A DNA stretch of 64,000 nucleotides from an uncultured virus (IMG/VR IMGVR_UViG_3300021256_003716) (Duplodnaviria; Heunggongvirae; Uroviricota; Caudoviricetes), in IMG/VR virus record IMGVR_UViG_3300021256_003716; one strand, 5' to 3'. The position numbers were made by a program, and so were the translations under genes. The notes beneath the pieces are model-generated. The model was given only the letters and a program-made list of their open reading frames with translations, was not told the DNA's origin and searched no databases. Positions 10,743 through 36,489 of this stretch are shown here, in pieces. Position 1 is the first letter of the stretch. Each line of letters opens with the position of its first letter.

Positions 10743-10751
10743 GGATAATAC

Positions 10752-11675: not shown

Positions 11676-11681
11676 AAAATG

Positions 11682-11705: not shown

Positions 11706-11707
11706 AA

Positions 11708-12283: not shown

Positions 12284-12301
12284 ACAAACTTCAAAAATGT
12301 G

Positions 12302-12329
12302 AAAGACCGGTACTTACCGGTCTTTTTTT
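12302..12329 (+). terminator. Intrinsic terminator
   Basis: AAAGACCGGTA-ct-TACCGGTCTTTTTTT. Confidence 0.8.
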
Positions 12330-12459
12330 ATTTCTCTCATTAACTTTTAAAGCTACATAACTAACTAAATATAAAAATTATCTTAGGATAATTGGCTTTA
12401 AAAATCTTCGTGGTGGGCGTTTTAAATTACGTGCCACAATATATGGGAGAAATAAATCA

Positions 12460-14802: not shown

Positions 14803-14869
14803 TCTAAATTACTAATCAGAGTGGCATACAATACTGTATGCCACATTTTACAATTAAAGGGAAATAAAA

Positions 14870-17167: not shown

Positions 17168-17211
17168 TCTAAATAGAGAGCTTTAAGCTCTCTATATTGG
17201 GAGATATATAA

Positions 17212-17700: not shown

Positions 17701-18276
17701 ATGAATGAAGAGCTAAGAGAACAGATGTTAAATGTTATGTTTGGCCCTTCAGAAGAAGAACTAAACGAGGGACTGGGAACAGCAATTAAGCATGGTGCTC
17801 AAAATGTAGTAAATCAGGTTAAGAATGATTTCGCTTTTACCGCTAAACAAAAAGCACAAGCTGCAAATAGAACAGCCACATTAAAAGCTACACAAGCTGC
17901 TGAAAATGCAGGTAATAAACAAATAAAGAATGCTAAAAAAGCTGGTAAAACTGCATATAAAGATATAATGTCAAAATGGTCAATTAAGTCTGCAAATCAA
18001 GCTATGCAAAATGCAGTAAATGCAAATGATATTGATACACTTGTTAGTGGCCTAGAATATGCTATTTGTGGTATTAATATTTTAGGTGCTAGTAAAGCTC
18101 AAGGTGAACAATCTTTTGAACAGCAACAAAATGTTCAAGATGCTGATAAAAATAATAAAAATGCTGGAAATGCAAATGTAGAAGCAGCTAAGAATAATAA
18201 GGCTAACGCAATGGCGGCTACTCAAAATGTTTCTGGTAATAATATGCAGAATCAAGGAGGACAAAATAATGGCTAA
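17701..18276 (+). CDS. Putative internal head protein (A/N/Q-rich)
   Basis: LRE and LNEG sites near the N-terminus. Confidence 0.5.
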   Translation: MNEELREQMLNVMFGPSEEELNEGLGTAIKHGAQNVVNQVKNDFAFTAKQKAQAANRTATLKATQAAENAGNKQIKNAKKAGKTAYKDIMSKWSIKSANQAMQNAVNANDIDTLVSGLEYAICGINILGASKAQGEQSFEQQQNVQDADKNNKNAGNANVEAAKNNKANAMAATQNVSGNNMQNQGGQNNG

Positions 18277-18805
18277 TTGGTCTTTAGGTAATGGTGTTCT
18301 TCCCTCTGAGCATCTTAATGAATCTCAGGATACTGGTAAAGTTAAAAATGCTATAAAAGCGCTTGAAGCAACTTATGCTGCATATAATGGATATATGACT
18401 AAAGCAAAAGCTGGAAGCCAAGATGGCTCTATAACCGATCAAAAAAGTTATCAGCAGGCTATTCAAAGCTTAGATAAATTAGGACAGGCTATTACTAGTG
18501 TGAAACAAGTCCTTGAGTTTTTTCAGAAAGGCTTAGTAACTGGAAATAAAAAACTTGGTGGCGGATTAAATCAGCAAACTTTAGATGCACTTATTAAAGG
18601 ATGCGAAGCAAAATTTAATGAGATTAAGTCTAAAATGACTGGAAATGTCCAGGCTAATGGGCAAAATCAAAATACTCAGCAGAATACACAACAGCAGCCT
18701 AATCAGCAGAATGCACAGAATAACATACAACAGATTACTACTGCATTACAAAATGCAACGCCTGAACAGCTACAACAAATTGCACAAATTTTAGGGAATA
18801 AATAA
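18269..18805 (+). CDS. Putative internal head protein (Q/N-rich tail)
   Basis: AGGAGG RBS before ATG 18269; HLNES site. Confidence 0.55.
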   Translation: MANWSLGNGVLPSEHLNESQDTGKVKNAIKALEATYAAYNGYMTKAKAGSQDGSITDQKSYQQAIQSLDKLGQAITSVKQVLEFFQKGLVTGNKKLGGGLNQQTLDALIKGCEAKFNEIKSKMTGNVQANGQNQNTQQNTQQQPNQQNAQNNIQQITTALQNATPEQLQQIAQILGNK

Positions 18806-18809
18806 AAAT

Positions 18810-18834
18810 AAAGCCGGATAAAATCCGGCTTTTT
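18810..18834. terminator. Terminator between convergent genes
   Basis: AAAGCCGGAT-aaa-ATCCGGCTTTTT. Confidence 0.75.
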
Positions 18835-18884
18835 CTTTAGGTTATACCTATTTAATATGTATATATACGAAAATAAGTTATATT

Positions 18885-20420
18885 TTATAGGCCCCCACGA
18901 TTAATAGCGAGTGACTGGGCTAAACTTGATTCATTCCAATAATTTATTACTTCTTCTTCAAGCTCTTTTGATCTTGACTTAAAATCATCTGCATTGAAAG
19001 GTATATTTTGGTCATCTTTTACTAGGGTAAGTAAAGCGCCAACATTACGTAAAGCATATGCTGTACAAAGTTTTCTTACCATTGGTATATCCCAAGCAGG
19101 AATGTGTGAATAGTCTAAGTCTGCGCAAAGCCAGTGAATATTTAGGAATCCCCCTACTGAAGAGTAGCCCTGAACATATTTTTTATTGTCTTCAATAATA
19201 TCGCGTGTATATTCTCTACGGAAATTATTTATATAGCCCTGTCTTGTAGCCATACTCATTAAAGCTGCATCAGATGTTTCTAATCCAACATAACCCGGAA
19301 CTGCTTTTCGGTATCTTAATCCATTTCCCCATTGGAAGCCGCTACCCATAGAGCCCATACCCATCATTTCGGTACGCATAAAATTAAATGCGGTACTATA
19401 AGCAGAAGCATTTGATGAGCCCGCGCCTAGTGTCATATAGGCATCAGCTTTATATGGGATTGCAGTTTTATTTTTTGGGAATAAGTGATATTCTACTTTA
19501 AACTCTTTACCTGCACCCATACTACCAACAGCTTCATCAATAACTAATGGGAATTTACTATAATAAACATCGAGAGCTGGACGAATACACATTTTAACTA
19601 TAGTGTCTTTATTATAAACCATTTCATCTTCATGTAAGAATGGCATTCCTAATTCTGACATTATAATCATATACTCATTATCACTAATAAGAACATCCGA
19701 AGATGTCGCTGCGTCATGTGCTACTGATTCCGCAAAGGGCATAAAGTCTGGTGGGACTTCATCATCGTAATAATTTGATCCAGAATCACTACCACCATCA
19801 CTTCCTACATCAGAGCCTATGTTAGAACCTGAGTCAGAACCTATATTAGAACCCGATGATGGATGCTTAAATGTAATTTTTGCAGCTTCTTCTGGCGTTA
19901 GAATAACTCTAAAGTTTGGTGATTCTACACCTTGATAAAAATAACATAAACCTTCAACATCATCTACTTCTAATTCTGACCAGTTTAAGGGATCAAAGCC
20001 TCTAGATGTATTAACTACGTATTCATAAATACAAAATACATATGCGCCTTCCATTGGACCAGGCTCAGTAACCTTAAAAAGGTTATCCTTAACATACATT
20101 TTTGTATTATTATTTACAGTCATTCCACCTAAAGATTTCCATGTATAGTAAATCTGCTTAGGGTCAGACTTTAATTTTAAAAGATATTCAAGCTTATTCA
20201 TATAAGAATTAGTAATAATGCCTGCTTGTTTCATTATTTTTATAGCTTGTTTATACCTATTACGTCTTACTTTTATAGAATGCTTCTTAGCAAATCTACT
20301 TTTTGGAAATGCCCTTTCTAGTAATGACTTATATTGTGGAAATTCTTTTTTTAAATTTATAAATTTGTTATCTTTATTTAAGTCAACAAATAAATTATAT
20401 TTGGTTAAATCTATAGCCAT
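18885..20420 (-). CDS. Putative virion structural (neck/head-completion-like) protein with internal GS-rich linker
   Basis: IMSELGMP...ALDVYYSKFP segment reminiscent of T4-like neck proteins; weak recognition only. Confidence 0.4.
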   Translation of the reverse strand: MAIDLTKYNLFVDLNKDNKFINLKKEFPQYKSLLERAFPKSRFAKKHSIKVRRNRYKQAIKIMKQAGIITNSYMNKLEYLLKLKSDPKQIYYTWKSLGGMTVNNNTKMYVKDNLFKVTEPGPMEGAYVFCIYEYVVNTSRGFDPLNWSELEVDDVEGLCYFYQGVESPNFRVILTPEEAAKITFKHPSSGSNIGSDSGSNIGSDVGSDGGSDSGSNYYDDEVPPDFMPFAESVAHDAATSSDVLISDNEYMIIMSELGMPFLHEDEMVYNKDTIVKMCIRPALDVYYSKFPLVIDEAVGSMGAGKEFKVEYHLFPKNKTAIPYKADAYMTLGAGSSNASAYSTAFNFMRTEMMGMGSMGSGFQWGNGLRYRKAVPGYVGLETSDAALMSMATRQGYINNFRREYTRDIIEDNKKYVQGYSSVGGFLNIHWLCADLDYSHIPAWDIPMVRKLCTAYALRNVGALLTLVKDDQNIPFNADDFKSRSKELEEEVINYWNESSLAQSLAINRGGL

Positions 20421-20466
20421 AATTATATACTAACATTAAAAAAAGCCCCTATTTAGGGGCCTTATA

Positions 20467-21309
20467 TTATGCAATACAATTTTCTAGCATTCGTTGATGA
20501 AGCTCTAAGAGAGAAGCTTCCAAAACTTGTTCAGTCTGGTGTTCTTTTCCCCACTTTTCTAAGAAAAGTCGCTTACTATGTCTAGTTCTTGGTCCGCGTA
20601 AAATGATTAAAAGGTACATTCTAGTAAGGAAAGCAATTCTTGAATCATGACCGATTACAGTATCTAGCTCACGGATAATAGAATTAAAAACCGTTCCATT
20701 ATCCATAGCAATTACTTTATCTTCTGGTGATAAATAATCTGGTGAAGCTGCTGTAATTGCGCTATCCTCATAAGTCATATTTTCAACTATTTCTTTCTGC
20801 CCATCATCAGAAATAATTTGATTAAGGCTTAAATGGTCATCTTCTGTTTGATACTTATAAAGTGCTTCAACAATCTTCCATTTTACCATACCAGCGAATG
20901 AAGCACCAACATAGAAGTCTGGGTTTTTATTATACTGGCTCATAAATGCTAGAGCAGCAGAAATAGCCTTATCAGATACGTCTTCTGGTTCCATAAACTT
21001 CTTCTTTTTATTTCTTTTAAGAATACAGGAACGTGTATACTGATACATAATCGCAAGCATTTTTGACCAAGTTTCTCTAGAATGGTCTACTGGTTTTGCC
21101 ATTTTAGGCTCTCTGCCAGTAGCTAGAGCACGCTCTAGCTCTTTAGAGTATTTTTCATACTCTTGTTTATATTTATCACGTTCAACAAATAATTGAGTTT
21201 GTAATGCAAATAACTCTTGCTCTGTAGGTGGCTTTTCATCGATAGTACCATAAAAGCCTTTTTCTGCAATTTTATCATTAAGATCGTCTAATATTTCTTC
21301 TTTTGTCAT
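20467..21309 (-). CDS. Putative phage sigma factor (gp55/late-sigma-like)
   Basis: Sigma region-2-like segment EDVSDKAISAALAFMSQYNKNPDF..SFAGMVKWKIVEAL followed by HLSLNQII. Confidence 0.55.
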   Translation of the reverse strand: MTKEEILDDLNDKIAEKGFYGTIDEKPPTEQELFALQTQLFVERDKYKQEYEKYSKELERALATGREPKMAKPVDHSRETWSKMLAIMYQYTRSCILKRNKKKKFMEPEDVSDKAISAALAFMSQYNKNPDFYVGASFAGMVKWKIVEALYKYQTEDDHLSLNQIISDDGQKEIVENMTYEDSAITAASPDYLSPEDKVIAMDNGTVFNSIIRELDTVIGHDSRIAFLTRMYLLIILRGPRTRHSKRLFLEKWGKEHQTEQVLEASLLELHQRMLENCIA

Positions 21310-21376
21310 TACTTGTTAATAATCCTATTTAAAAGTATAGAATAATATTAACAAGTAACTTAAAAAACTGCAGAGC

Positions 21377-23068
21377 TTACTTTTTGTAAGTATCTAATAT
21401 GTCTTTTAATGTCTTAGGTTGACCAAAATAGAAGCCTTGCATCATATCTACGCCTAAGCTATCTAATACTTTAATTTGGCCCTTTGTTTCAACACCTTCA
21501 GCTATTACTTTACATTTGAGTAAATGTGCGAGTTGAACAATAATATTGACAAATTTTAATTTTTCTTCATCAGTGTCTACATTGCTAGTAAAAGACTTAT
21601 CAATCTTAACAATATCAACATGTAATTTTGTTAAATAACTTAAAGAAGAATATCCTGTACCAAAATCGTCAAGCGCAATCTTGCAGCCTAAAGCTTTTAT
21701 TTTCTTAATATTGGATGAGGCTTCATCCATATGCTTTATATATGATGATTCTGTTATCTCAAATTCAAGATTAGCTGGAGGAAAACTAGCCATATTTATA
21801 GCTGAAATAATATCATCAATCAGGTCCATATCACATAAATGTTTACCAGATAAGTTTACAGCCAAAATATAATTTGGATTGATACTTAAAAGTTCTTTTG
21901 CCTCAATAAGTGCATGCTTTAATACCCAAATATCAATATCACATATTAAGCCTGATTGCTCAGCTATTCCAATAAACTTGGATGGCAATAAGTCGCCCAT
22001 TTTTGATGGCATTCTTAATAGAACTTCATAACCCAATGGAGCATTATTATCTAGCATATATTGAGGCTGGTAGAGTAAATAAAATTTATCTTCTTTCAAA
22101 GCATATTTTATTTGTTTCTCAATATTATATCTGTCTACAATCTCTTTATACATTTCTGCATTAAAGAATAAATACCTATTTTTACCAGATGTTTTAGCTT
22201 TGTACATAGCGGTATCAGCATAACTTAAAAGCTTTTCAATATCTCTAGTATCATTAGGAAATGATGCAATTCCAGCAGAAGTTGTTACATACGATGTAAG
22301 TTCACTACCTGTTTTTATAGAATTAAACATTTCTTTAACAACTTTTGTAGCAATTTTTTTATCATCCGTTTCAATAACCATTGCGAACTCATCACCACCT
22401 AGTCTTGCCAAAGTACACCTATCAAATATTTTTATATCATTCCATTTTGATGCAATAAACTTTAGCAATTCATCTCCAGCCTTATGGCCCAATGTATCAT
22501 TTACAGCCTTAAAGTTATCCAAATCTAGAAAAACAAGATAAAAAGGAGAATCTATAAAGAGCTTATTTTCCATAAGCTTTACGAGTCCCCTTCTATTTAT
22601 ACATCTGGTTAGAGTATCATAATATGCAGCATTGCTAAGAGTACTTTCATTATATTTTGCCCTGAAAATATAAACCTTTAATAAAGTTGTAATAATAATA
22701 TTAAAGATACTATAACTAATACCGATTAAATATAAGTCGTTATGTCGTATTATTCCAAATACGGATAAAACGCATATCTCAGTCAAATCAGCTAGCATTA
22801 GAATATTATAAGTTAACGCATTGCCTAATACTAGAATACATACTGAAGCTACAACTGAAGAGGTTACAGTCCACTTAAATAGGTCACCAGTTAAGATCCT
22901 ATATCCAAATAATGAGAAGTCTGTAAAATTAAAACAGTAGTGCGTTAAAAGCCAAAAAATAGAAATATAGAAAATAGTTATGAAGAATGCAGAAACTTTC
23001 CTTGTTCTTGATGTTTTAGCACCTACCAATTTTTTTAATTCTTTATTTTTCTTAAAAAGGGTTATCAT
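21377..23068 (-). CDS. Membrane-bound GGDEF-EAL protein
   Basis: TM N-terminus; DLDNFKAVNDTLGHKAGD, RLGGDEF, YQPQY, EVLLR, EITES, DDFGTGYSS, KIDKSF, AEGVET, QGFYF. Confidence 0.95.
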   Translation of the reverse strand: MITLFKKNKELKKLVGAKTSRTRKVSAFFITIFYISIFWLLTHYCFNFTDFSLFGYRILTGDLFKWTVTSSVVASVCILVLGNALTYNILMLADLTEICVLSVFGIIRHNDLYLIGISYSIFNIIITTLLKVYIFRAKYNESTLSNAAYYDTLTRCINRRGLVKLMENKLFIDSPFYLVFLDLDNFKAVNDTLGHKAGDELLKFIASKWNDIKIFDRCTLARLGGDEFAMVIETDDKKIATKVVKEMFNSIKTGSELTSYVTTSAGIASFPNDTRDIEKLLSYADTAMYKAKTSGKNRYLFFNAEMYKEIVDRYNIEKQIKYALKEDKFYLLYQPQYMLDNNAPLGYEVLLRMPSKMGDLLPSKFIGIAEQSGLICDIDIWVLKHALIEAKELLSINPNYILAVNLSGKHLCDMDLIDDIISAINMASFPPANLEFEITESSYIKHMDEASSNIKKIKALGCKIALDDFGTGYSSLSYLTKLHVDIVKIDKSFTSNVDTDEEKLKFVNIIVQLAHLLKCKVIAEGVETKGQIKVLDSLGVDMMQGFYFGQPKTLKDILDTYKK

Positions 23069-23218
23069 AGCTCTCCTTAGCTCTTACTATAATTAGAGTA
23101 GCCCTTACAAAAGGGATTTACATGTAAAAAGGATTTATCCGTGGGATATAGTTAGTCGACATAATTGAAAAGGGTACCAATCTGGTACCCTTAATAAATT
23201 TATATATTCTGAAATTCT

Positions 23219-23959
23219 TTAATTTTTGTAAAGCTTATTTATTATAATTTTATTACAAATATAAGATGCATCATCATTGCTACATGTACAAGTTACATCA
23301 AGCTTAGTTTTTTTATTTGATAAAATTTCAAAAAACTTATCTGCGCCAATATTTATTGTGAACTTTGGTTTAAGGCCATCTACCATAGAAAAAGTACAAA
23401 TATTTGAATCTGCCTTAAGTACTACTGAAGGTTCTGGTACTAACCATAAAAAATAATAGTTATCTGGGCTTTCCTGGAAATTTTTAAGATTATGCTCAGC
23501 TTCTTTTACTCTATCTTCCCAATATTTGGTCCAATAATCCGCAATATCATCTACCATTTCATCAATTTCTTTATCTGTTGTATCCTTTGTAATTGTTATA
23601 CCATAAGGAGGAGGCCACTGTAAATCTCGCTCGGCTATATGGCGGAAACTAGAAAATACCGTCCAGTTACCAGAATCACAATATGAGGGATAATTAGTAT
23701 TTTTAATTTTATTATCAAGTCTATATTTAATGTCATCTCTAACTTTCTTATATGACATTTTAGACACTTTAATACGTTCTTCTAAAGTACCCTCATAATC
23801 ATTTTTTAAGTAGTAATTTAAGTTATCTTTTTGCTTTTTAACTTCAGCCTGAAGTCTTTTAACTTTTAAGTCCGGCGTATTACTTTTTGAGGGTCGATAA
23901 TCTTTTATACTTAAACCTTCAATTTTAATTATTGCTTCTACTTGTACAGTTTTTGCCAT
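23219..23959 (-). CDS. Hypothetical protein
   Basis: 246-aa ORF with RBS, in a minus-strand operon. Confidence 0.65.
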   Translation of the reverse strand: MAKTVQVEAIIKIEGLSIKDYRPSKSNTPDLKVKRLQAEVKKQKDNLNYYLKNDYEGTLEERIKVSKMSYKKVRDDIKYRLDNKIKNTNYPSYCDSGNWTVFSSFRHIAERDLQWPPPYGITITKDTTDKEIDEMVDDIADYWTKYWEDRVKEAEHNLKNFQESPDNYYFLWLVPEPSVVLKADSNICTFSMVDGLKPKFTINIGADKFFEILSNKKTKLDVTCTCSNDDASYICNKIIINKLYKN

Positions 23960-23982
23960 ATATTATTTACTACCTATAAGTA

Positions 23983-24492
23983 TTACTTACAATATTTATT
24001 TACAGCATCTACAATAATATTATTAAGATTATTAAAATCTGCTGATATAGGACTGTTCAGGGGAACATCCTCTTTTAAGTCCTTATGGTATATATTATCG
24101 TTACCTAGCCTATATGAAAATTTAGGATAAATATAAATTCCTACATACCTATTTATAAACCGCTGGTCATCACCATTATTATTAAGATGGCCATATGCGT
24201 TTATTCTAACTTCCAATGTATAATCTGATGAAACATTGTCAGAATCTATATCAAACAGCATTTCACAATAGTCCACTAAAAATTTTCCTCTTCTCAAATG
24301 AGTTATTTTATCGGAAACTTGATTAGTGCCATCTTCAATAAGTTTTACCATAGATGATAAAAAATCTAAAACCGGTTGTTTATAAGCAACCCTATCTTGT
24401 AATACCCTAATTTGGTCATTAAGATTTTCTAAATCTTTTTTACTCTCATCTTCAAATCTATGAGTTATCTTTTCAAAAAAATCTTTTTTCAT
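23983..24492 (-). CDS. Hypothetical protein
   Basis: 169-aa ORF closely coupled to the upstream gene. Confidence 0.65.
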   Translation of the reverse strand: MKKDFFEKITHRFEDESKKDLENLNDQIRVLQDRVAYKQPVLDFLSSMVKLIEDGTNQVSDKITHLRRGKFLVDYCEMLFDIDSDNVSSDYTLEVRINAYGHLNNNGDDQRFINRYVGIYIYPKFSYRLGNDNIYHKDLKEDVPLNSPISADFNNLNNIIVDAVNKYCK

Positions 24493-24494
24493 AT

Positions 24495-25721
24495 TTATGC
24501 GTCTGAATCAATAATCTTAATACAAATAACTTTCAAAACACTATCCTGAATAATAAAGCCTGTTCCATGCGGTGTGCCAATAGCGCCAGAAGAATATATA
24601 ATTGTTACATTATCATCTACCATACGAGATAATATATCTTTTACATAAGCTGACCCAATTAAGAACTTAAAACTTTTTGAAGGTTCTGTATTTGAAATAA
24701 CTGTAACTGGTACAAATACACTTGCAGATGCATTACTATCCGCATGCGATAAATAAATCTGATTATTATTCAAGTGTACTTCAGATGAGTCCAAAACTAA
24801 GCTATTCCATTTCCATAACTCTGATCTAAATACACCATCAAAAGTATTAAGCGCTTCAACTAACTCTGCTTTATTTACCTGAAGTGTTATATTTTCAGCA
24901 TCACTTGGAGCAACAATATCTATTTCTTCCTCAGAAGGATACTGGAACACATTTTCAGCCAAAGATGTAATCATCAATAAGCCATTGGATGTTTCAATCT
25001 GAGCATACTGGTTTGACTCATCTAATGTAAGTACAACGTCATCTTTAATAAAAGATGACATATACTTCACAAGATTGTCCTGAATATAAATATCCTTATC
25101 ATAAGGTGATAAATCTTCCTTAAGAGTATATTCCATAATACCTTGTGGGTCACAATATTTAATTGTATTATGATTTATCATTGCTGAGTTCAATTCATAT
25201 CCTGAAGCCTTCATTGATCTACAAATAATTGCCATAATATCAAGGAACTCAGCATTTGGTTTAATCTTATAAGTATTACCTGCAAAACAGTTTCTATAAT
25301 CATCAAATGACTGAATAATCTTCTTTACTTTATTTTCTGTAAGCTTATCATGATTTGCAATTGTAATTTCTGTTTTAGTTACGTCATTTCTAATAATAGT
25401 AGACGTTGTATCTTCTCCAGCTACTATAACTGTAACAAAATCTGCACCTTTTAAAACTTTATTTGCGGTTGCGGCAAATTCGGCTACATTTACTAAGAAA
25501 TAATTCAAAGTATTAGTAACATCTGAGGAAGCACTACTGATATTTATAATAAATCTAGCTGAAAAATCGTCATTACCACCAAGAAACAACATTGTTAAAG
25601 TATTATTGTTTACATCTGGTAAACAAATACTTACGGAGTTCGCAATAATATCCTTTCCATGTGCTTCAAAGCTAAGTAATTTTTGAACTTCTGCTTTTGT
25701 TAAAGTAAACTGTGTATTCAT
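24495..25721 (-). CDS. Putative DNA polymerase sliding clamp (DnaN/beta-clamp-like)
   Basis: 408 aa, beta-rich threefold layout; FTLTKAEVQKLL, FQYP, QVNKAELVEALN and IGSAYVKDIL segments resemble beta-clamp repeats. Confidence 0.5.
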   Translation of the reverse strand: MNTQFTLTKAEVQKLLSFEAHGKDIIANSVSICLPDVNNNTLTMLFLGGNDDFSARFIINISSASSDVTNTLNYFLVNVAEFAATANKVLKGADFVTVIVAGEDTTSTIIRNDVTKTEITIANHDKLTENKVKKIIQSFDDYRNCFAGNTYKIKPNAEFLDIMAIICRSMKASGYELNSAMINHNTIKYCDPQGIMEYTLKEDLSPYDKDIYIQDNLVKYMSSFIKDDVVLTLDESNQYAQIETSNGLLMITSLAENVFQYPSEEEIDIVAPSDAENITLQVNKAELVEALNTFDGVFRSELWKWNSLVLDSSEVHLNNNQIYLSHADSNASASVFVPVTVISNTEPSKSFKFLIGSAYVKDILSRMVDDNVTIIYSSGAIGTPHGTGFIIQDSVLKVICIKIIDSDA

Positions 25722-27020: not shown

Positions 27021-29331
27021 TTATTGTGGAATATACTTATCTGCGTATTCAAGATTAAGTTTATTAGGAATAACACCAATTTGGGTATTCAAAAGATTAT
27101 CCCATAAAGAATGCATTCTTAAACAACGCTCAATTGCTTGCAATTCGTTATATTCAAGCTTTTCTTGATTTTTAATTTTATCAAAAATGGCTTGTTCCCA
27201 ATCTCCCATAGTTAACCTCTAAATTTTCTTAACATACCGAGTAAAGTAGCCCATTTTTCTAGCCTCGTCAATAAGCTTATTTACTTCATCTACATAAAGA
27301 TTATAATATTTCTTTAACCAAGATGGCACTTTATATTTTCTCATTTTCTTAAAATAACTTTTATAAGTCTTAAAGAAATCTATAAATGCGTCCATTGAAA
27401 AGCAAACAATATCTCCAGAATAATTTTTATATTCCATAAGATCCTTGTTTGTACTAGAAATAAAATTTTCTTTTAACAAATCTGATGAGTCTTCTTTACC
27501 CATAATAACGCAAGATTCAAGACTATTAATATTAAGACTTAATGACGCAAGTTTTGTATAATCGTAAGTAACAGTTTTTTTCATAATAATCTCCTTACGA
27601 TTATAATATGTAGAGAGTTCTATAAAAGCCTAATTTTTAGTCATATGCAGTATCAGATTCATACCACCATTCAATTCCATGGCCAACCATAATATAGCTT
27701 CCATCCGGCTTCTTAAAGAAAACAATGCCATCTACCATTTTATCATATTTACACTCAATTGTAGTTTCATAAAGTATAGGACGCGCACTAGATGGGAATG
27801 CTTCAGCAAAATATTTAATATGTAGCGTTCCAGCAAAACAATTTAAGGCTACTAGGCCGCTTAATATTAAACTACAAATAAATTTTTTCATATTCTAATC
27901 CTCTATATTTACTTTTTGTAGATATTTTGTCCAAAATCCGCCACTAAAACCTTCAAGCATAACTAACTCAGTTCCATAATTATCCCAAGAATCAGTTGCA
28001 CATTCCCAAATTTTACCATTATAGTGCTTTGCTTCTATGCAGGTATGCATTACTACTTTATCACCCTTATGGAGAACATTCGCACCTTTTTTAGCTCTAG
28101 CAGCACCTCTTCTTTTCTCATAAGAATCTATAACATCTTTCCATTGATAATCCTTTACAAGGACAGTATCATTGTTCTTATATTTTTTCATAAAATCTGT
28201 ATAAGATTTATAATCATCTACAATATGATAAGTATGTTCAGGATAATGTTTATAAAATTCTTCAGCTGTGTAACGTTCACAATCAAAAAAACTTGGAGTA
28301 TATCCACTGAAACATCTATCTTCATTATCTGGGGTTCTTTTTCCCCAATACATAATACAATCTTTAGTAGAATGCTTAATTGAAATTGCAATATAATCTC
28401 TCATTTCCATAAATTACCCCTTAGTAGGTTTTGCTGATTCATTAGGCTGTTGCCCACTAAATCTGAATGACTTGAAAGGACTATAAAGATAATCTTTTTC
28501 CGTAGCTTCATCTGGCCAAGAGTTTATATCAATTTGAGGTTTATCAGTCCAACCATCATGGTCTCCATCTACATATCCTCTGCAGCATGTCATATCAATA
28601 CAATGATTCTTTGATAGTTTAATTTGTGTACAATTTTCACAAGTTTTATTCATTTTATAATCCTAATAATGATGATATTTTTAGACCATTAATTGGAGAA
28701 CTAAGCTGTTCAATACCCCAGCAAAGAGTTTTATCCACTTCAATAAAGTGTTTACAAGCTTTCTCTAAATTTTTCCGATTACCTAAATCATTCCATCCAT
28801 TTTTAAGAAAGCTAGTATCTTTCCAATAACCATAACATTTTTCACCGTTTCTCTTAAAAGAAAAAGGAAGATGTTGAAAAGTACCTATAAAGTATGTAGC
28901 AAAAGCATATTTTTTTAAGGTATCATAATAGGTAATATACCAGCTTCTATATTTTCCATTAGGGTCTAGCCACCCATTGCGTCCGTCATAACGTTCTGCG
29001 TTAGGGTCAACATAAAATCTAATAAGTACCATTTTTAGTTATCTTTCATTACTTTTGGCATCATGTTATTAACACAGTTTTCAAAAGCATTTTTCCATTC
29101 TTCCGTTTTAGGTGTAATTGGGCTATTAAAAACAATGCACTTAATATCTACACATTCATGTACATATAAGATTACATAAATATCTTCGATATTTGCATCA
29201 GGAATAATCTTAATCCAATCATCCTCATTGTCATTTTTATTATAAATGACAGTATTCATTTCAACAATTGTATCATTATCAAGAGTAAAGCCTGGAATAT
29301 TCAACTGTCTAACTACATCATATGTATTCAT
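27021..29331 (-). other. Cluster of seven small hypothetical ORFs (27021-27209, 27219-27584, 27637-27891, 27895-28410, 28414-28653, 28655-29032, 29035-29331)
   Basis: Tightly packed minus-strand ORFs; ACATATTATA-type motifs at 27602-27611 and about 29347; 27637-27891 has a signal peptide. Confidence 0.65.
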
Positions 29332-29422
29332 AGTACAATACCTCTATAATAATATGTATTTATACTTAAAAAATCATAAAAACTTACTTAAAAATTATAT
29401 AGAAGTATACTAATTTAGAATT

Positions 29423-29611
29423 ATGAAAAAAGTACTTATGGAAGTACCTGAAAAATGTGAAGGTCTATGTGATGGATGCTTTTTCTTCATAAAACGTGAC
29501 GCTTGTTTTAATGTGGTTTGTCAAAGATTACTTGTGAAAGGAAAAGATTGTAAAGATAAGATCTTTGTATTAAAAGAAATAAAAGATTCAAAAAGTTCTA
29601 AAAATAATTAA
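29423..29611 (+). CDS. Small Cys-rich protein
   Basis: CxxxCxxC...C....C; CTAATT 7 nt before ATG. Confidence 0.55.
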   Translation: MKKVLMEVPEKCEGLCDGCFFFIKRDACFNVVCQRLLVKGKDCKDKIFVLKEIKDSKSSKNN

Positions 29612-29686
29612 AGTCTACTCAATTTAATCTAAGTTTAGCTAATTTAAAAATATAATGAAATTTTTTATTTAGGGGAGAAGTCTTTA

Positions 29687-30076
29687 ATGAAAAAATTAAT
29701 ATGTTTTGTATTATTGGTTTTCATGTGCTATCTTCTTTGTGGAGAAACTTATACTGTTGTAAGTATAAGAGGCATAAATGGACACAAAGGACTAGCTAAA
29801 CTAAAGCAAGGTGGCGCAATTTCGATTGGTCAAGAATTAACAGATAATGATTATGTAGTTTTGAAAAATGGAAATTACATCGAGTTGGATAATAGTAAGT
29901 TTATTTATGATGAAGGTTATGTTAAGGATGTAGTTACTGATAAACGTAGACTTACTAAGGGAAAGATTGTAAAAGCTAGTAATATTGCTGGCCCGGTAGA
30001 ATCCACAAGAAAAGGCGTAGCAACTGCAGCATCAAGGGCTTCAGATGCTAAAGAAGATTTTGATTGGGATGAATAA
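29687..30076 (+). CDS. Exported protein, resembling a Treponema-type family
   Basis: Signal peptide; YTVVSI.G, GQEL.D, C-terminal RKGVATAASRASDAKEDFDWDE. Confidence 0.6.
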   Translation: MKKLICFVLLVFMCYLLCGETYTVVSIRGINGHKGLAKLKQGGAISIGQELTDNDYVVLKNGNYIELDNSKFIYDEGYVKDVVTDKRRLTKGKIVKASNIAGPVESTRKGVATAASRASDAKEDFDWDE

Positions 30077-30102
30077 GATTCTAGGACGGATACTAGATAT
30101 TT

Positions 30103-30112
30103 ACATATTATA
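30103..30112 (+). promoter_or_regulatory. ACATATTATA promoter motif upstream of flaB
   Basis: Exact 10-mer also found in intergenic positions 7670, 12025, 46432, 50557, 56745 (+) and 27602 (-). Confidence 0.6.
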
Positions 30113-30150
30113 GTAAAATAGGTAAACCATAAACCTAAAGGAGTAAAATC

Positions 30151-31002
30151 ATGGTAATAAACCACAACATGTCTAGCCTCTTTGCTTCACGCCAAGAAGG
30201 TATTAATACTCAGGCTCTTCAGAAGTCAATGGAAAAACTTGCCTCTGGCGAAAAGATTAACAGAGCAGGTGATGATGCTTCAGGCCTTGCAGTATCTGAA
30301 AAAATGCGTTCTCAGATTAGAGGTCTTAATCAGGCTTCAAGAAATATTGGAGATGCAATTTCTTTTTCTCAGACTGCAGAGGGCTACCTTAGTGAAACTG
30401 TAGATGTTCTTCAGCGTATTCGTGAACTTGCTGTTCAGGCATCTAATGGTGTTTATTCAGATGAAGACCGCGCGCAAATTGCAGTTGAAGTATCACAGCT
30501 TGTAGCGGAAGTAGATAGAATTGCATCAAGTGCGTCTTTCAATGGTATGTCACTTTTGACCGGTCGTTTTTCGCGTGAGTCAGATGTTGTAATGCAGTTC
30601 CAAATCGGAGCAAATTCTGATCAAAATATTCGTGCTTATATTGGTACAATGACTTCTCAGGCATTAGGCCTTACGGGTATTCAGGGAACTGATGAAAAGA
30701 TTTCTATTGCTAGTCCAGATGAAGCAAATGCTACAATTGCAACACTTGATGAAGCTCTTAAAAATGTAAATAAACAGCGTGCTGATTTAGGTGCTTATCA
30801 AAACAGAATGGAATTGGCAGCAAAAGGAATCAACGTTGCTGCAGAAAATACTCAGTCAGCAGAATCTCGCATTCGTGATGCTGATATGGCCTCTGAGATG
30901 GTTGACTTCTCTAAGAATCAAATTATTACGCAAGCGGCAACTAGTATGCTTGCACAGTCTATTTCAATCAATAGAAGTCAGGTATTACAGCTTTTAAGCT
31001 AG
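30151..31002 (+). CDS. flaB: Flagellin, spirochete FlaB-type periplasmic filament core protein
   Basis: [70 protein letters not shown]; 283 aa with no D2/D3 domain; AAGGAG RBS. Confidence 0.97.
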
Positions 31003-31026
31003 ACTTTTAAGATAAAATTTTTTAAG

Positions 31027-31053
31027 AAGGTTAAGTATTATACTTAACCTTTT
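31027..31053 (+). terminator. Terminator after flaB
   Basis: AAGGTTAAGTA-tta-TACTTAACCTTTT. Confidence 0.75.
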
Positions 31054-31071
31054 ATTATATAGAGGTATACT

Positions 31072-31734
31072 ATGTATAAAAAATTATTATTAAGCTTTAT
31101 AATTCTAGCATTTTCAGCAATATGTTTTTCTAATGAGTATATTTCTGTAAGTTCTAATTCGAAAACTTTAGAGTATCATAATCATGATACTTATGAAGTT
31201 TGGTATGATACATACTATAATAATCCTTCTTTTGTCATTTGGGATTTAACTTTTGAAGATGCTGTATTATCTGATAGTTCAAATAATAGAGCTAAATCTG
31301 GATTTAAGCAATGTGGCTCTTCCGCAAAGGAAAATGGCTATACAAAATCTGGCTTTGATAAAGGTCATATGTGCCCGAATAACGATAGAGATTGGAGTAA
31401 AGAATCTTCTCTTAATACTTTTAGAGCATGTAATATATGTCCTCAAACAGGCGCATTAAATAGAGGCAATTGGAAAAAATATGAAGCTTATGCGCATACT
31501 TTAGCAAATAAGTATCAACTTGTTACAATTGTATGCGGTCCAGTATATACTACAAGAGATAAAGTTATAATACCTGGAGATATTGTAGTACCAAATGCAT
31601 TTTTTAAGGTTTTTATAATTAATAATAAAATTTTTGAATGTTATATTTTTTATCAAAATAATACTTTTGAAATGGCAAATATAAATAAGATTGAAAAACT
31701 TACTGGGCTTAAGTTCAAGATTAAGAAGGATTGA
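31072..31734 (+). CDS. Exported DNA/RNA non-specific endonuclease (NucA/Serratia type)
   Basis: Signal peptide; SGFDKGHMCP (DRGH-like), NICPQ...LNRGNWKKYE, CGP, VPNAFFKV. Confidence 0.9.
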   Translation: MYKKLLLSFIILAFSAICFSNEYISVSSNSKTLEYHNHDTYEVWYDTYYNNPSFVIWDLTFEDAVLSDSSNNRAKSGFKQCGSSAKENGYTKSGFDKGHMCPNNDRDWSKESSLNTFRACNICPQTGALNRGNWKKYEAYAHTLANKYQLVTIVCGPVYTTRDKVIIPGDIVVPNAFFKVFIINNKIFECYIFYQNNTFEMANINKIEKLTGLKFKIKKD

Positions 31735-31915
31735 AAATGGCAAAAGAAGTTTCTGAAGCACAACTAAAAGCAGTATCGCTTAAAATTATTAATTGCATAA
31801 AATTTCATTTATGTAAGATGGATGAGGACTATGATAAGCCAATAATCAGTCCAAAGTTTCTAGCAGATACTTTAGATCAAATGGCAATTGATGGATTTGA
31901 GATGGGGATAGAAAA

Positions 31916-32290
31916 ATGACAAAAGAAGAGATAAAAAAGAAAATTAAAGAACTTGGGATAATATCTATTGAAGATGCAAATAATTGGCAAACAATGGAAG
32001 ATGTAATTAAAATTATTGAGGAAACAAATAAATCTCCTAAGATGATTGCAGTTCCTTTAGTTATTGATGCGGAAACTGACAGAAAGCTTTTTAATACCCG
32101 AGAAAAAATTTTATCATATTTTTCTGAAAAGAAGATTACAGATATATCTATACAGCGAGAAATATTAGTAGAAGCTATGAAAATAGACTCTGAGCCATAT
32201 ATAGCTAATCAAACAGAAGAACAAATCCTAGAGTCTGATATTAAAATGTATTTAACATATGCTTGGATAAATAATAGACAACATTATTAA
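31916..32290 (+). CDS. Hypothetical protein
   Basis: 124-aa ORF overlapping the small upstream ORF 31731..31919. Confidence 0.6.
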   Translation: MTKEEIKKKIKELGIISIEDANNWQTMEDVIKIIEETNKSPKMIAVPLVIDAETDRKLFNTREKILSYFSEKKITDISIQREILVEAMKIDSEPYIANQTEEQILESDIKMYLTYAWINNRQHY

Positions 32291-32294
32291 AAGT

Positions 32295-32318
32295 AAAGGC
32301 TGGACTAACCAGCCTTTT
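32295..32318. terminator. Bidirectional terminator
   Basis: AAAGGCTGG-actaa-CCAGCCTTTT. Confidence 0.75.
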
Positions 32319-32322
32319 ATTT

Positions 32323-32916
32323 TTACTTTTGTAGTTTATCAATTAAAGTAATTACAGAACCACGTAGAAATCCAAAATAGCCGCCACCAGATAAATCTCT
32401 ATTTTCTTTTGCAAAGTTTACAGAAATATCAGTATAGTCATTATATAGACCTTCATTATCTAATAAACAATCAATTATATTATCTTTAACTTTTCTAGAG
32501 TTTTCTTCACCCATTATTGTAACAAAATTTGAATCAAAATACTTTCTTACTCTCAAAGCGCCTTTAGAGAGAGCAAGCCTAAGTAGCTCATCATAAGCAC
32601 GACCAGACTCAGATAAAAAATCATCATTTCCTAAAAGATCAGATAAATTATTAAGTTTATATTTTTCCTTAAAAGTTTTTATTTCAATATCTGTTACGCC
32701 AAGTTGTTTTATATTTTCATCATTTGTAGCTAGCCACCAGTGGTGACAATTTCTGACACTCTGTTTTTTTAGCGCCTCAGAAGCTGAAACAAATTGATAG
32801 CAATGCTCATCGTCATCATAGCCAACGTTAATCAATCCAGTAATTTCTGGTGCATCACCAAGACGAATTAAATGTTTATAATAAAAAAAGCATGTACTTG
32901 AATATTTCTTAGCCAT
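32323..32916 (-). CDS. Hypothetical protein
   Basis: 197-aa ORF; CTAATT 7 nt before ATG. Confidence 0.65.
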   Translation of the reverse strand: MAKKYSSTCFFYYKHLIRLGDAPEITGLINVGYDDDEHCYQFVSASEALKKQSVRNCHHWWLATNDENIKQLGVTDIEIKTFKEKYKLNNLSDLLGNDDFLSESGRAYDELLRLALSKGALRVRKYFDSNFVTIMGEENSRKVKDNIIDCLLDNEGLYNDYTDISVNFAKENRDLSGGGYFGFLRGSVITLIDKLQK

Positions 32917-33014
32917 AGTAATTAATTAGCAAGTTTTTGCCTAAAATACACGTAATTACTACTAATTTTTATAACTTAAAAAATTAACTATTGAGGATTA
33001 TAGGAATATAAAAT

Positions 33015-33704
33015 ATGAAGAGGTTAAATGAATGGAACCCGGGCACTAAATCGGAAGCACTTGATTGGGTTGAAAGTGAGTTAAATACTTTAATAGAAAA
33101 GTTAGATGAACTTAATCAAAGTAATAGAATCCAATATGATGATTATTCAGAGCTTCATGATATAGTTGACCAAGCATTGGTATATGTTAGCGCAGGTCTT
33201 AAGCTAAGCGAATCTAGGAAATTAAATGAAGAACTCGCCTCAAGCGATGAGGCTCATTACTATAATGAAGGTTATGACGCATATATGGATGGTGCCAAAG
33301 ATTCTGACTGCCCATATGATGTTGAGGCGGAAAAAGAATATCAAAGATATTATAATAAATTAAAATCAAAAGCTTGGCATTGGGGCTATAGAAGTGCATT
33401 TGATGATGACTCTAATAGTGAACCTTATGAGCATCGTATGACAGAATCTAAAGAACTCCGCGAATCTACTAGTTTTATAGAGTCTGATGACTATAATAAA
33501 TTAATAGATTGTGTAGAAAATAAAACTCCAGAAGCTACAGCTGAATACTCTGGAAGCCTTGCAAAAAAATATGATTGTAAAAATCCTAAAGTTGTTTTTA
33601 AGAAAGTTTATGATTTCCTTCTAAGTGAAAGAGGAATGAGTATGGACCCAGAAGCAGCTGCAACTAAAATTGAAGATATACTTATGGCAGAGTATTATAA
33701 ATAA
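33015..33704 (+). CDS. Putative head-packaged protein with an internal RMF-like motif
   Basis: LNE/LSES/LNEE/MTES/LRES sites; EGYDAYMDG...CPY...AWHWGY resembles ribosome modulation factor. Confidence 0.5.
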   Translation: MKRLNEWNPGTKSEALDWVESELNTLIEKLDELNQSNRIQYDDYSELHDIVDQALVYVSAGLKLSESRKLNEELASSDEAHYYNEGYDAYMDGAKDSDCPYDVEAEKEYQRYYNKLKSKAWHWGYRSAFDDDSNSEPYEHRMTESKELRESTSFIESDDYNKLIDCVENKTPEATAEYSGSLAKKYDCKNPKVVFKKVYDFLLSERGMSMDPEAAATKIEDILMAEYYK

Positions 33705-33863
33705 TAAAACATTTTTAATTAAAAAATGTAAAATATGACATAGATAAATATTTATTTGTGTTTGAAATAATAACGAAGTATTAATAATTTCATTAGTTAC
33801 GTTATTATTCAAAGTTTTATGTTATTATTATTAATTAAAGGAATAATTTGATTAGGAGTAAAA

Positions 33864-34706
33864 ATGAGAAAATTTATTAGTATACTTCTTGTAGCATTTT
33901 TATTTGTTGGTATAGCATTTGCTGATGAAGCAAAATTGTTTGACTATACTGCAAAAGCAGATGTATTAGACACAGGCTATGATTGGGTAGCCAATGCTAA
34001 GGCAGAGGGAATTTCCGGAACATATGTTCCAGGTAAAAATCTTTTTAATCCAGTACTTTCAGAAAAGTATGGTCTCTGTATTCGTACAGATAGCGCACCA
34101 AATGCTGATAGTCGCTACGCTATCTCTTTTATTGAACCATCATTTAATGAACCAAATTCAGGTGCGGGATATATTAAAAATGCTGCGGCAGTAAAAAGTA
34201 TGGATATTGTGCTTACGCTTAATCGTGGATATGATGAAGTAGAAATTTTCTGGGAACAGAATGGTGTTGAACATAAACGTAAGTTTAAGGCATCAGACGC
34301 AACTACTACTATTGAATCTATGATTGAATTTAAGGCACATATTGATTTTTCAGAATATGTTGATGATGTAAGAAATCGTTCAATTGCTCAAATTCCAGTT
34401 GCTGGATTAAGAATGACGGATATTAAGCTTAAGAGAATTGAAGTTATTACACATAGAGCACCAGGCGATTGGATGTATAGCCCAACTTCTATTTTGGGCG
34501 TGAAAGAAATTACAATGGTATATGATAAAGCTGTTACTGATGAAGCTTACGAGCGTGGACATGAAGCTGACGAAGTATTCGGTGTAAAAGCTACTAAATT
34601 GCTTGAAGACCAGACTAGACGTAAGATTGAAATTAACTTAAGACAGTCAGAATATAATAAATCATTGATGGCAACTGAGGGAACTCAGGAAGCAGACGCA
34701 AAATAA
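33864..34706 (+). CDS. flaA: Flagellar filament outer layer (sheath) protein FlaA homolog, divergent
   Basis: Signal peptide ending AFA|DEAKLFD; GAGYIKNAAAVKSM, EYVDDVRNR, KEITMVYDKAV, DEVFGV, LMATE are colinear with Treponema FlaA motifs as I recall them (GYGVVKNVGVLKSI, YISDVRSR, KDVKIIYDKAV, EDLWGI, KLATE). Confidence 0.8.
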   Translation: MRKFISILLVAFLFVGIAFADEAKLFDYTAKADVLDTGYDWVANAKAEGISGTYVPGKNLFNPVLSEKYGLCIRTDSAPNADSRYAISFIEPSFNEPNSGAGYIKNAAAVKSMDIVLTLNRGYDEVEIFWEQNGVEHKRKFKASDATTTIESMIEFKAHIDFSEYVDDVRNRSIAQIPVAGLRMTDIKLKRIEVITHRAPGDWMYSPTSILGVKEITMVYDKAVTDEAYERGHEADEVFGVKATKLLEDQTRRKIEINLRQSEYNKSLMATEGTQEADAK

Positions 34707-34725
34707 TTAAAATTTAACTATAAAT

Positions 34726-34755
34726 AAAGGGTCACATAATTTGTGGCCCTTTTTT
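34726..34755 (+). terminator. Terminator after flaA
   Basis: AAAGGGTCACA-taatt-TGTGGCCCTTTTTT. Confidence 0.8.
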
Positions 34756-34780
34756 ATTTTTAAACGCTAATTAAGTTACA

Positions 34781-35857
34781 ATGCGTGCGGTAGAAAAAGC
34801 AGATAATTACATTATTAGATTTCTCTATAAAAAGCAAATTAAAGCTGATGTTATATACGCACTCTTTTTAATTTTTACTACAATAACATCTTTTGCAACA
34901 CAAAATAGTATTTGGTTAAGCTTAGTCTGCGTTTTAGCAACTTCCATAGTAATAGGCTGGACAATTAGGGATCTATTATCAAGAAGGGAAATTAATGCTC
35001 ATAATAGAGCTAAAGTACGACTATTTTATGTTGTATCTCTAATGTTATATTTATTTATGCCATCAGAAATGTTTATGGCTAGTATAATTTTTATTATTCC
35101 TTTTACAATCTTTTTTGTAGATTTGGTAGAAACTTATTGTGGACATGACTCACTTCACTGGCCATATATTTTTCATTTTGCATATGGCAGTATAATATTT
35201 TTAATAGTTAGCATGATAAAGCCATTTATCCCAATAGAAAAGTTTTATGTAACAGATTGGTTTAAGGTTATTTATAATCCTATTGCATTTACAATGATTA
35301 TAGATAATATTGCAGGCGAACTTGTAGATTTAAGAACAGTCTTTAAGGCAAAAGCATTTAGAGATGAAATTATAGCTTGTTATGATGAACTAACAGAAGT
35401 GCATAATAGACATGGCATTGTACAGCTCTGTGACTTAAGTAGAGCAACAGCTATAGCAATGATTGACTTAGACCATTTTAAGTTGGTAAATGATACTTAT
35501 GACCATAATACTGGCGATTTTGTATTAAAAGAGTTTGCAAATAGACTCTCAACTTATGGTGATAACGATAATTTTATTTGTCGCTGGGGTGGTGAAGAGT
35601 TCATTATAATTTCTAATAGTATTGGTGACCTTAAGGATATTTGTGTAAAACTTTTAATTCAAATGCGCAGTGAGCCAATATATTTTACTTTCAAAGACCA
35701 GAATATCGCGCATACACAAACGTTTTCTTGTGGTATAACCGAGATGGACCCAACAAAAGAGTTGGATGAGATGGTTAAGTTGGCGGATATACAGGCATAT
35801 CTATCTAAGGAAAATGGTAGAGACCACGTATATATAAATAATGAAGCTTTATTATAA
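34781..35857 (+). CDS. Membrane-bound diguanylate cyclase (GGEEF)
   Basis: Multiple TM helices; DELTEVHNR, IDLDHFKLVNDTYDHNTGD, RWGGEEF, TFSCG, AD...Y.SKENGRD. Confidence 0.93.
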   Translation: MRAVEKADNYIIRFLYKKQIKADVIYALFLIFTTITSFATQNSIWLSLVCVLATSIVIGWTIRDLLSRREINAHNRAKVRLFYVVSLMLYLFMPSEMFMASIIFIIPFTIFFVDLVETYCGHDSLHWPYIFHFAYGSIIFLIVSMIKPFIPIEKFYVTDWFKVIYNPIAFTMIIDNIAGELVDLRTVFKAKAFRDEIIACYDELTEVHNRHGIVQLCDLSRATAIAMIDLDHFKLVNDTYDHNTGDFVLKEFANRLSTYGDNDNFICRWGGEEFIIISNSIGDLKDICVKLLIQMRSEPIYFTFKDQNIAHTQTFSCGITEMDPTKELDEMVKLADIQAYLSKENGRDHVYINNEALL

Positions 35858-36489
35858 GGAATACCTATATGCAAGTAGTAGCTTTAGTAGTATTTTGTGT
35901 TATATATCTCATAATTACTTATTTATTCAAAATAATAGATGAGATAGTAGATATTCTAGTTAATAAAACCTATTCTAGAAAAAAAGGAATTACGAATCAT
36001 AATGGTAAATCTATTATGTTTTCTATTTTAGGTATGGCCCCATTTGAAGATATAAGTGCTGACTTCTTTGATGACATTGTTGTTAAATGGGGAGTATCAC
36101 GAGATTTTTTACTTTTCAAAGATGCTATGGGCCAAAGTAATAACTTTGAAAAAAAAATTTTAAAGAATTGGGAGAGCATATTTAATGGTGAAGAATTGGA
36201 TAATTAGAAAAATAGCAATGTTTCTATTACGAAATGCAGAAAGAGTAGGTAATATCAATAATGCTATAGAAGTAAAACTTAATAAAGGTGATTTAGAGAA
36301 AGATTATTGGCAGCAGTCTTTTATAGAGTTTTTTGTTAATAATAAGTATAGCATAAGATATTTTCCAAGAAGATTTATTAGAGACTATACTATAAATGGT
36401 AAGCCCCATAAAACTTATTTCGATGGCTGGTATACATTTTCGAACGGTGAGTACAGCATATATCAGGCCAAGGATGCAGATATAGAGTC

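Follow-up and report, generated by a model that had tools for sequence, protein, structure and literature searches.

The 64,000-nt stretch of DNA analysed here (the window) belongs to an uncultured member of the Caudoviricetes, IMG/VR record IMGVR_UViG_3300021256_003716. On its + strand lies flaB (30151..31002), which encodes a 283-amino acid spirochete core flagellin with a variant C-terminus. A second + strand gene (33864..34706), which starts 2.9 kb downstream of flaB, specifies a 280-amino acid protein. Profile, hhalign and Foldseek comparisons relate this protein remotely to FlaA, the sheath protein of the flagellum, of which it is a shortened homologue. We propose that the phage-made FlaB and FlaA-like proteins enter the periplasmic flagella of the host, a proposal that we believe about as much as we doubt it. 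The host would be a gut Treponema, most likely of ruminants.

The core flagellin gene

The product of the flaB open reading frame (ORF) begins with MVINHNMS and contains both flagellin domains of Pfam: Flagellin_N (PF00669) at residues 3–139 (E 9.6e-42; 142.8 bits, cut-off 26.6) and Flagellin_C (PF00700) at residues 197–282 (E 6.6e-22; 78.1 bits, cut-off 23). No stretch between the two could form D2/D3, and the protein is D0/D1 only. The closest solved structures, with E 5e-106, are the flagellins 10pp_A and 9pil_Fd of spirochete filaments (284–286 amino acids); the PDB entries 9pim and 10pl, the flagellins of which also match FlaB, hold FlaA as well. Local alignments to the PDB flagellins stop at residue 272, at which the C-terminus becomes atypical. 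By its size, its D0/D1-only build and its nearest relatives among spirochete filament flagellins, the protein is a spirochete core flagellin, and an earlier sequence-only reading was correct in calling it a full-length FlaB.

Its counterparts in the host genus are the Treponema FlaB1-3 proteins, in particular the second tandem paralogue (282–285 amino acids), which it resembles in length, in D0/D1 build and in its 74% identity to the T. bryantii copy. In T. denticola this second paralogue is called FlaB3 (PMC9481697), of which the window protein is a putative orthologue. Unlike the Treponema genes, the window copy is phage-encoded and lies outside a flagellar operon, and at its end AQS-x3-NR...LL(S/G), with one residue more, replaces AQAN-x5-VLxLL(R/Q).

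A shortened remote homologue of FlaA

A profile (A1) made from 13 FlaA-like sequences matched PDB chains named 'Flagellar filament outer layer protein' (9pim_BR, E 4.4e-13; 10pl_Ab, E 4.4e-10). The alignment takes in the signal peptide and first strand and then profile positions 97–272, including the ...LMATEE end. Run against five Treponema genomes, the same profile found one significant ORF in each, in all five the PF04620 FlaA (E ~1e-76), and hhalign comparison of the phage profile with host FlaA gave 98.4% probability (E 1.1e-14) at ~21% identity over the aligned part. The three best Foldseek matches to the predicted structure are FlaA1 of 9cyn (E 1e-5 to 6e-5).

The N-terminus, MRKFISILLVAFLFVGIAFA/DEA, has the appearance of a Sec-type signal peptide and aligns with the signal of host FlaA; this putative signal, together with a mature N-terminus of the host type (A/DEAxLxD), points to the periplasm. 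The phage protein further shares with FlaA the C-terminal two thirds, including YDKA and the ...LMATE(E/G) end. It differs in length (280 against 362–393 amino acids in the five Treponema genomes), in having no Pfam match and in forming a family of its own, comprising 186 proteins with a Pfam label on none of the 120 listed. The nearest ESM Atlas cluster is 100% viral, and a PF04620 cluster comes third. For the gene, 24 variants are listed, every one of them synonymous.

By tblastn, a homologue occurs downstream of flaB, within the flank retrieved, at eight of the 22 loci compared (L004, L007–L011, L018 [79%] and L031), and by alignment there is another near the flaB of L003. Three of the four related phage records that were compared (G001–G004, 220–386 kb) carry the gene, in G003 at a distance of 52 kb from flaB. 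The sequence-only reading of the window did not note this FlaA-like gene, the presence of which makes a structural role in the periplasmic flagellum more likely, at the expense of FliW titration and filament poisoning.

The variant D0 C-terminus

FlaB of the window lacks the canonical end, ...MLAQAN-x5-VLxLL(R/Q/G). That its C-terminus deviates had already been recognized in the sequence-only reading, which treated it as a peculiarity of a single gene; the end (A/S)QS-x3-(N/S)R...LL is instead a signature shared by 90 of the 120 closest homologues. Eighty-four of these 90 have 283 amino acids, one residue more than the canonical 282-amino acid form, while the other 30 retain the AQAN...LLR end. 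Conservation on this scale marks the variant end as a selected feature and not as damage. It was seen in none of the bacterial FlaBs examined, and 140 of the 141 FlaB ORFs from the fetched loci are, by inspection, of the xQAN/NAN form, L012 being the sole exception. Other phage clades (L011, L004, L005 and L013) have kept the canonical C-terminus.

The additional residue sits inside the D0 helix, and inspection of the alignment indicates that the hydrophobic spacing is kept. The D0 end of the phage clade (AQS-x3-NR...) may tune filament-core packing or chaperone recognition; in FliS-flagellin complexes the C-terminal D0 end of flagellin is the chaperone-binding end.

The homologues P0004 and P0005 are identical to the window FlaB from about residue 140 to the end and divergent in the N-terminal third; the flaB alleles are therefore mosaic. 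Contig X12 from an RNA library (record 4) fits the window gene only from 30474 onward. Together, these sequences suggest that variants of the phage flaB have recombined.

A very large tailed phage

The window (31.7% GC) is made up mostly of short orphan ORFs. Its recognizable genes specify NrdD/NrdG, an SbcC-like protein, an HD protein, a nucleoside deoxyribosyltransferase, homing endonucleases and 12 tRNAs; structural phage genes were not found within the 64 kb. Thirty of its ORFs match IMG/VR record G001 (239,841 bp), and the matches to 135..25721 all fall inside 153,650–177,027 of that record, with the order largely kept and amino acid identities of 27–68%. G001 has DNA polymerase, primase, DnaB, DnaC, UvsX, baseplate wedge, tail and tail-fibre proteins (PHROGs), as well as RNA ligase, GroEL and an NrdD split by a homing endonuclease. 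The collinearity with G001 and its phage genes identify the window as part of a very large tailed phage. Two of the related records are rated 100% complete, G002 (385,934 bp) and G003 (300,878 bp, with direct terminal repeats); G004 is rated 70% complete. Terminase_6N (PF03237) was not found in G001–G004, 20 kb of window sequence had no megablast match among the INPHARED phages, and tblastn of FlaB against phage records returned only matches of ≤56% identity, mostly to unannotated fragments.

Retention and selection of flaB in the phages

Each of the four related phage records has a single flagellin. A search of IMG/VR gave 18 loci with a FlaB relative, and flaB is present in three or more phage lineages; a further lineage is made up of L001, L002 and L012, with at least 12 flanking ORFs in common (including a 5'-3' exonuclease, primase and DnaB) and none shared with Treponema loci. 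FlaB is the best-conserved protein between the window and G001, at 85% identity. The best 120 homologues in a set of 5.8 billion proteins are 81–100% identical, their contigs reach 390 kb in length, and single entries can stand for many contigs (139 for P0008, 114 for P0022). Among the matches listed for GTDB species genomes, the nearest bacterial FlaB reaches 74% (Treponema, including T. bryantii).

The phylogeny and the dN/dS (nonsynonymous to synonymous rate) comparison with host flaB that had been proposed earlier were carried out. By the Nei–Gojobori method (NG86), dN/dS is 0.07–0.19 between phage flaB pairs and 0.06–0.10 between host pairs, dS between the window and Treponema is saturated at 2.3, and all 16 listed population variants within flaB are synonymous. 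A tree of FlaB (IQ-TREE, LG+G4; 140 representatives of 261 sequences clustered at 94%) places the window protein in a 15-row clade with L011 and database proteins, with a Shimodaira–Hasegawa-like approximate likelihood ratio (SH-aLRT) of 99; its sister group consists of L001 and L002 (SH-aLRT 95). Six rows, L031 among them, make up another phage clade, with an SH-aLRT of 100. The phage-type rows and a 51-row bacterial clade, that of the second tandem flaB paralogue, together form a clade (SH-aLRT 99).

Two loci in this data set come from metagenome-assembled genomes (MAGs) of other bacteria. L031 is a 306,108-bp contig in a 'Candidatus Fimenecus' MAG and has both a phage-type flaB and a flaA-like gene; it groups with the IMG/VR phage loci, and probably phage DNA has here been binned into a Bacillota MAG. 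L026, a 2,270-bp contig in a 'Clostridia' MAG, has a tandem flaB pair like that of Treponema; it probably derives from a spirochete and was mis-binned.

The sequence-only reading took flaB to be phage-encoded and named as contrary outcomes a host-DNA chimera, absence from related phages and silence of the gene. The first is largely refuted: the same neighbours (the 129-amino acid protein, the nuclease and the FlaA-like protein described here) recur in independently assembled phage records, the third-position GC (GC3) of flaB is 0.25, near the 0.20 ± 0.03 of the 54 window ORFs, and the saturated dS agrees with this. The second is contradicted by the flagellins in all four records. We conclude that flaB is phage-encoded and is neither chimera nor passenger.

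Expression data

The window is represented, at least in part, in 20 listed runs belonging to 16 studies, and those with an organism label are mostly bovine or goat gut metagenomes. Contigs from RNA libraries of two different studies cover both flaB and the flaA-like gene at 95–100% identity, and the gene was thus not found to be silent. On flaB, X12 spans 30474–30864 with 20 differences and X20 spans 30678–30890 with none; on the flaA-like gene, X12 spans 33826–34695 with 31 differences. Within 29400..35900 there is no RNA-library contig on the nuclease gene, on ORFs 31916 and 32323 or on the GGDEF gene, which is no sign of silence. The very high depth at 30268–30484 consists of short flagellin pieces of other organisms that are 90–95% alike.

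Control signals and dependence on the host

FliS, FliW and CsrA were each found in none of the four phage records, and there was no match to them among the small window ORFs that do not overlap larger ORFs (25 of 45). The phages therefore rely on host export and control. In the Treponema genomes fliW and csrA are adjacent (5/5).

The flaB ribosome-binding site (RBS), AAGGAG at 30138..30143 (+ strand), was read from the sequence 7 nt 5' of the ATG and carries a second GGA. Upstream of it, the minimum free energy fold of 30077..30160 contains a leader hairpin at 30080..30097 (+ strand), UCUAG-GACGGAUA-CUAGA, in which 30080–30084 pair with 30093–30097 and the loop displays GGA, a candidate CsrA site. 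The pattern of a GGA-loop hairpin plus a Shine–Dalgarno hairpin is clearer in the relatives L004 (z -2.6), L007 (z -2.75) and L013.

Downstream of flaB is an intrinsic-terminator-like structure (31025..31062, + strand), a hairpin with a 13-bp stem (31025..31053) followed by a U-rich tail. Its folding energy is -15.3 kcal/mol (z -2.9), and two of 200 shuffled sequences fold equally well; a simple consensus terminator scan missed it. The RBS and terminator of the sequence-only reading are both borne out by these features. After the flaA-like gene, the scan located a terminator-like hairpin of 11 pairs, five of them GC, and a T-run, TTTATTTTTA (34726..34762, + strand). The strand switch at ~29.4 kb lies 0.7 kb upstream of flaB, and since the two + strand ORFs that precede the gene (29423.., 29687..) are not separated from it by any terminator that was detected, co-transcription with them is possible.

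In L002 the region upstream of flaB has TAAA, a spacer of ~15–16 nt and GCCGATAA, an arrangement of the sigma-28 type, and L001, L004 and L005 come near the sigma-28 consensus with G(T/C)CGATAA. The filament of T. denticola consists of FlaA and FlaB1-3, with flaB2 driven by sigma-28 and the others by sigma-70 (PMC9481697).

Possible roles of the flagellar pair

In the reading that we prefer, both genes would be expressed during infection, FlaB would leave the cytoplasm by the host flagellar type III export apparatus, and the FlaA-like protein would be exported by Sec. Both subunits would then be built into the periplasmic flagella of the host, and the motility and shape of the infected cell would be kept or changed while the large phage replicates.

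A number of observations weigh against this reading. Regarding the sheath protein, the FlaA-like sequence has no Pfam or PHROG match, and the Pfam FlaA model (PF04620) is silent even at E 10; it lacks roughly 70–90 residues of host FlaA and is 80–110 residues shorter overall; its AlphaFold2 model is of medium confidence (predicted local distance difference test score 66.5); and the Foldseek template modelling (TM) scores against FlaA1 are 0.33–0.53. In FlaB, the extra D0 residue could hinder normal polymerisation. Retention is not universal either: G004 has no FlaA-like gene, and the flaB of G002 (L003 10001..10848; G002 331374..331783) is broken by a stop or frameshift, so that the filament module may be dispensable, although intact 282-amino acid versions with the same C-terminus as L003 are present on 350–390 kb contigs. 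As to expression, the RNA-library contigs show neither transcription start nor strand and, because such libraries can contain DNA, are only compatible with transcription. The promoter that the sequence-only reading had assigned to flaB was not recovered: a sigma-70 scan of 30077..30150 gave no site, and the sigma-28 -10 box (GCCGATAA or related) is absent upstream of the gene, with no copy of GCCGATAA and no CCGATA near flaB. The whole-leader fold of the window gene is non-significant (z -1.4). Finally, the branch that has all 24 phage-type rows on one side reaches an SH-aLRT of only 75, and a union of the window clade with the rumen Treponema clade that resembles T. bryantii passes the approximately unbiased (AU) test (p 0.335), for which reason a single ancient capture cannot be claimed.

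A more far-reaching version, which we offer tentatively and think rather doubtful, is that huge gut-spirochete phages, as a widespread group, carry a matched core and sheath pair, that the phage D0 end favours assembly of phage subunits with one another, and that, with the help of the phages' own c-di-GMP enzymes, the flagellum is rebuilt as a viral version through which swimming and shape are steered.

The proteins might alternatively act without much input to the filament. The phage flagellin and/or its mRNA leader would in that case soak up FliW, FliS or CsrA in the cytoplasm and so reprogram flagellin homeostasis and CsrA-controlled translation. The adjacency of fliW and csrA in all five Treponema genomes and the lack of both genes in the phages favour such a decoy, as do the GGA-loop hairpins before flaB in the relatives, and possibly in the window, and the phage-specific change in the C-terminal D0 segment. 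A decoy would, however, have no need of a Sec-exported FlaA-like protein, which three of the four records keep. Purifying selection, seen in invariant columns and dN/dS, extends over the whole of FlaB including the D1 polymerisation surfaces, and a quarter of the close homologues (30/120) have the canonical AQAN...LLR end. We consider it unlikely.

We would also be surprised if the pair served to sabotage the filament, that is, if the variant FlaB and a mini-FlaA stopped or distorted it and thereby immobilised or reshaped the cell, for example to provide room for large capsids or a favourable location. The D0 core helix, which in 90 of the 120 close homologues has an altered motif and one inserted residue, and a FlaA-like protein without a large part of host FlaA would fit this idea. 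In T. denticola, likewise, losing any filament protein upsets flagellar homeostasis (number, length and ribbon packing), and FlaA governs helicity (PMC9481697). Against it stand the canonical C-termini of phage L011, L004, L005 and L013 and the preserved hydrophobic spacing of the variant end; sequence cannot separate altering a filament from sustaining it.

Use in the virion or in another non-flagellar context, with the flagellin-fold and jelly-roll proteins serving as fibres or decoration, is very improbable. PHROGs does have a flagellin-like family of unassigned function to which FlaB belongs (phrog_16088, E 3.4e-52), and Foldseek also matches the FlaA-like protein to jelly rolls that bind carbohydrates and to some tail proteins of phages (E ~1e-4), but the Sec-type signal peptide and host-FlaA mature N-terminus point to the periplasm, the two genes lie among small orphan and auxiliary genes and not in a structural module, and the relatives have flagellar-type promoters.

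An assembly chimera with host DNA or a recent functionless capture is hardly credible. In its favour, the GC content of flaB (0.404) is the highest of the 54 window ORFs (mean 0.315), an identical FlaB is listed on a contig of a size odd for a phage, and none of the listed independent DNA contigs bridges the flaB borders, which proves nothing either way, but the GC surplus is in codon positions 1 and 2 and not in GC3, the neighbours are shared, the nearest listed GTDB FlaB is at 74% as against 119 further homologues at 81–100%, and dS is saturated to Treponema with purifying selection inside the phage clade.

The contig in question measures 940,564 bp, compared with the 220–390 kb of the related records; an identical FlaB (P0001) and an identical FlaA-like protein (P0121) are each listed on a contig of this length. 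The entry could be a concatemer, a chimera, a chromosomal prophage or an exceptionally large phage genome.

Relation to known systems

Large phages carry auxiliary genes of host type, such as the photosystem genes of cyanophages. The flagellar pair resembles these in being host-type genes under purifying selection in a large phage of the lytic type, where they presumably sustain the infected cell. It differs from them in that the product is a secreted organelle subunit in need of dedicated export and that two interacting parts are carried.

Phage flagellins are documented in temperate enterobacterial phages, in which the exposed filament surface is swapped (bioRxiv 10.1101/2023.11.30.569447). 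The closest published system is the one of Enterobacter, in which the prophage gene fliC_P, accompanied by the TldR repressor, specifies a phage flagellin with conserved D0/D1 that is expected to be assembled by the host machinery (bioRxiv 10.1101/2023.11.30.569447). Host sigma-28-type promoters are a further likeness, here in the relatives L001, L002, L004 and L005. The fliC_P-tldR phages, as portrayed there, are temperate, their hosts have external flagella, the exposed D2/D3 domains are swapped and an RNA-guided repressor acts on the host gene; in the window, by contrast, the flagellum concerned is periplasmic, D2/D3 are lacking and a sheath protein is also carried. No TldR/TnpB/OrfB domain was found in the window ORFs scanned, and the fliC_P-tldR module is thus not present among them. 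Because the Treponema flagellum is periplasmic, receptor masking and immune evasion are not readily applicable.

Among the relatives, only L013 has a TnpB-like gene after flaB. It lies ~300 nt 3' of flaB (11160..12524, + strand) and encodes 454 amino acids with HTH_OrfB_IS605, OrfB_IS605 and Cas12f1-like TNB domains. It recalls the fliC_P-tldR pairing and may be an ordinary insertion sequence element.

Full-text literature searches turned up no report of a spirochete-phage flagellin, although the supplements of phage papers could list such genes. Treponema phages are barely known (PMC11144348), and the flaB/flaA-like pair suggests that a large group of uncultured phages has Treponema as its host. 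The core and sheath pair is kept across several phage lineages of 220–390 kb, and the closest FlaB homologues stand for hundreds of contigs. Should the two proteins indeed become part of the filament, a virus would clearly be providing components of a machine that bacteria secrete, and this would furnish spirochete motility research with natural D0-core variants and a minimal FlaA. A flagellum rebuilt in viral form would amount to the takeover of the structure of a bacterial organelle, beyond metabolism.

Neighbouring genes and other features

Directly upstream of flaB is the gene for a 129-amino acid protein of unassigned function with a signal peptide (29687..30076, + strand), which has no Pfam or PHROG match and is 39% identical to the product of L011 8275..8682, likewise situated beside flaB (L011/G001). 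Directly downstream is the gene for a secreted DNA/RNA non-specific endonuclease (31072..31734, + strand; Pfam Endonuclease_NS, 5.7e-33), the L011 homologue of which is 56% identical and also adjoins flaB. The 129-amino acid protein, the nuclease and the FlaA-like protein make up a cluster of exported proteins around FlaB.

The next gene after flaA-like specifies a membrane-anchored GGDEF protein with an intact GGEEF motif (34781..35857, + strand; Pfam GGDEF, 4.5e-28). A second membrane-anchored protein, of the GGDEF-EAL type (21377..23068, - strand; Pfam EAL 1.1e-68, GGDEF 1.4e-33), has GGDEF, EVL, DDFG and EGVE motifs. GGDEF genes are also present in the complete records G002 and G003. The two c-di-GMP enzymes (21377..23068 and 34781..35857) may be part of the same motility strategy as the flagellar pair.

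As candidates for a phage-specific promoter word, TATAAATA, TATTATAG and TTATATAG were sought, and their counts were unconvincing. A near-identical word, TTATTATA(TA)GAGGTAT(A/T)(C/G)T, occurs just 5' of two start codons, at 31050..31071 (ORF 31072) and, on the - strand, at 29332..29357 (ORF 29035..29331), and there is a looser copy at 29390..29410, before ORF 29423. This word may be a phage promoter or RBS signal. Lastly, the tRNA array at 57103..63136 consists of 12 genes, including three for tRNA-Glu and two for tRNA-Asp, with homing-endonuclease-like ORFs interspersed.

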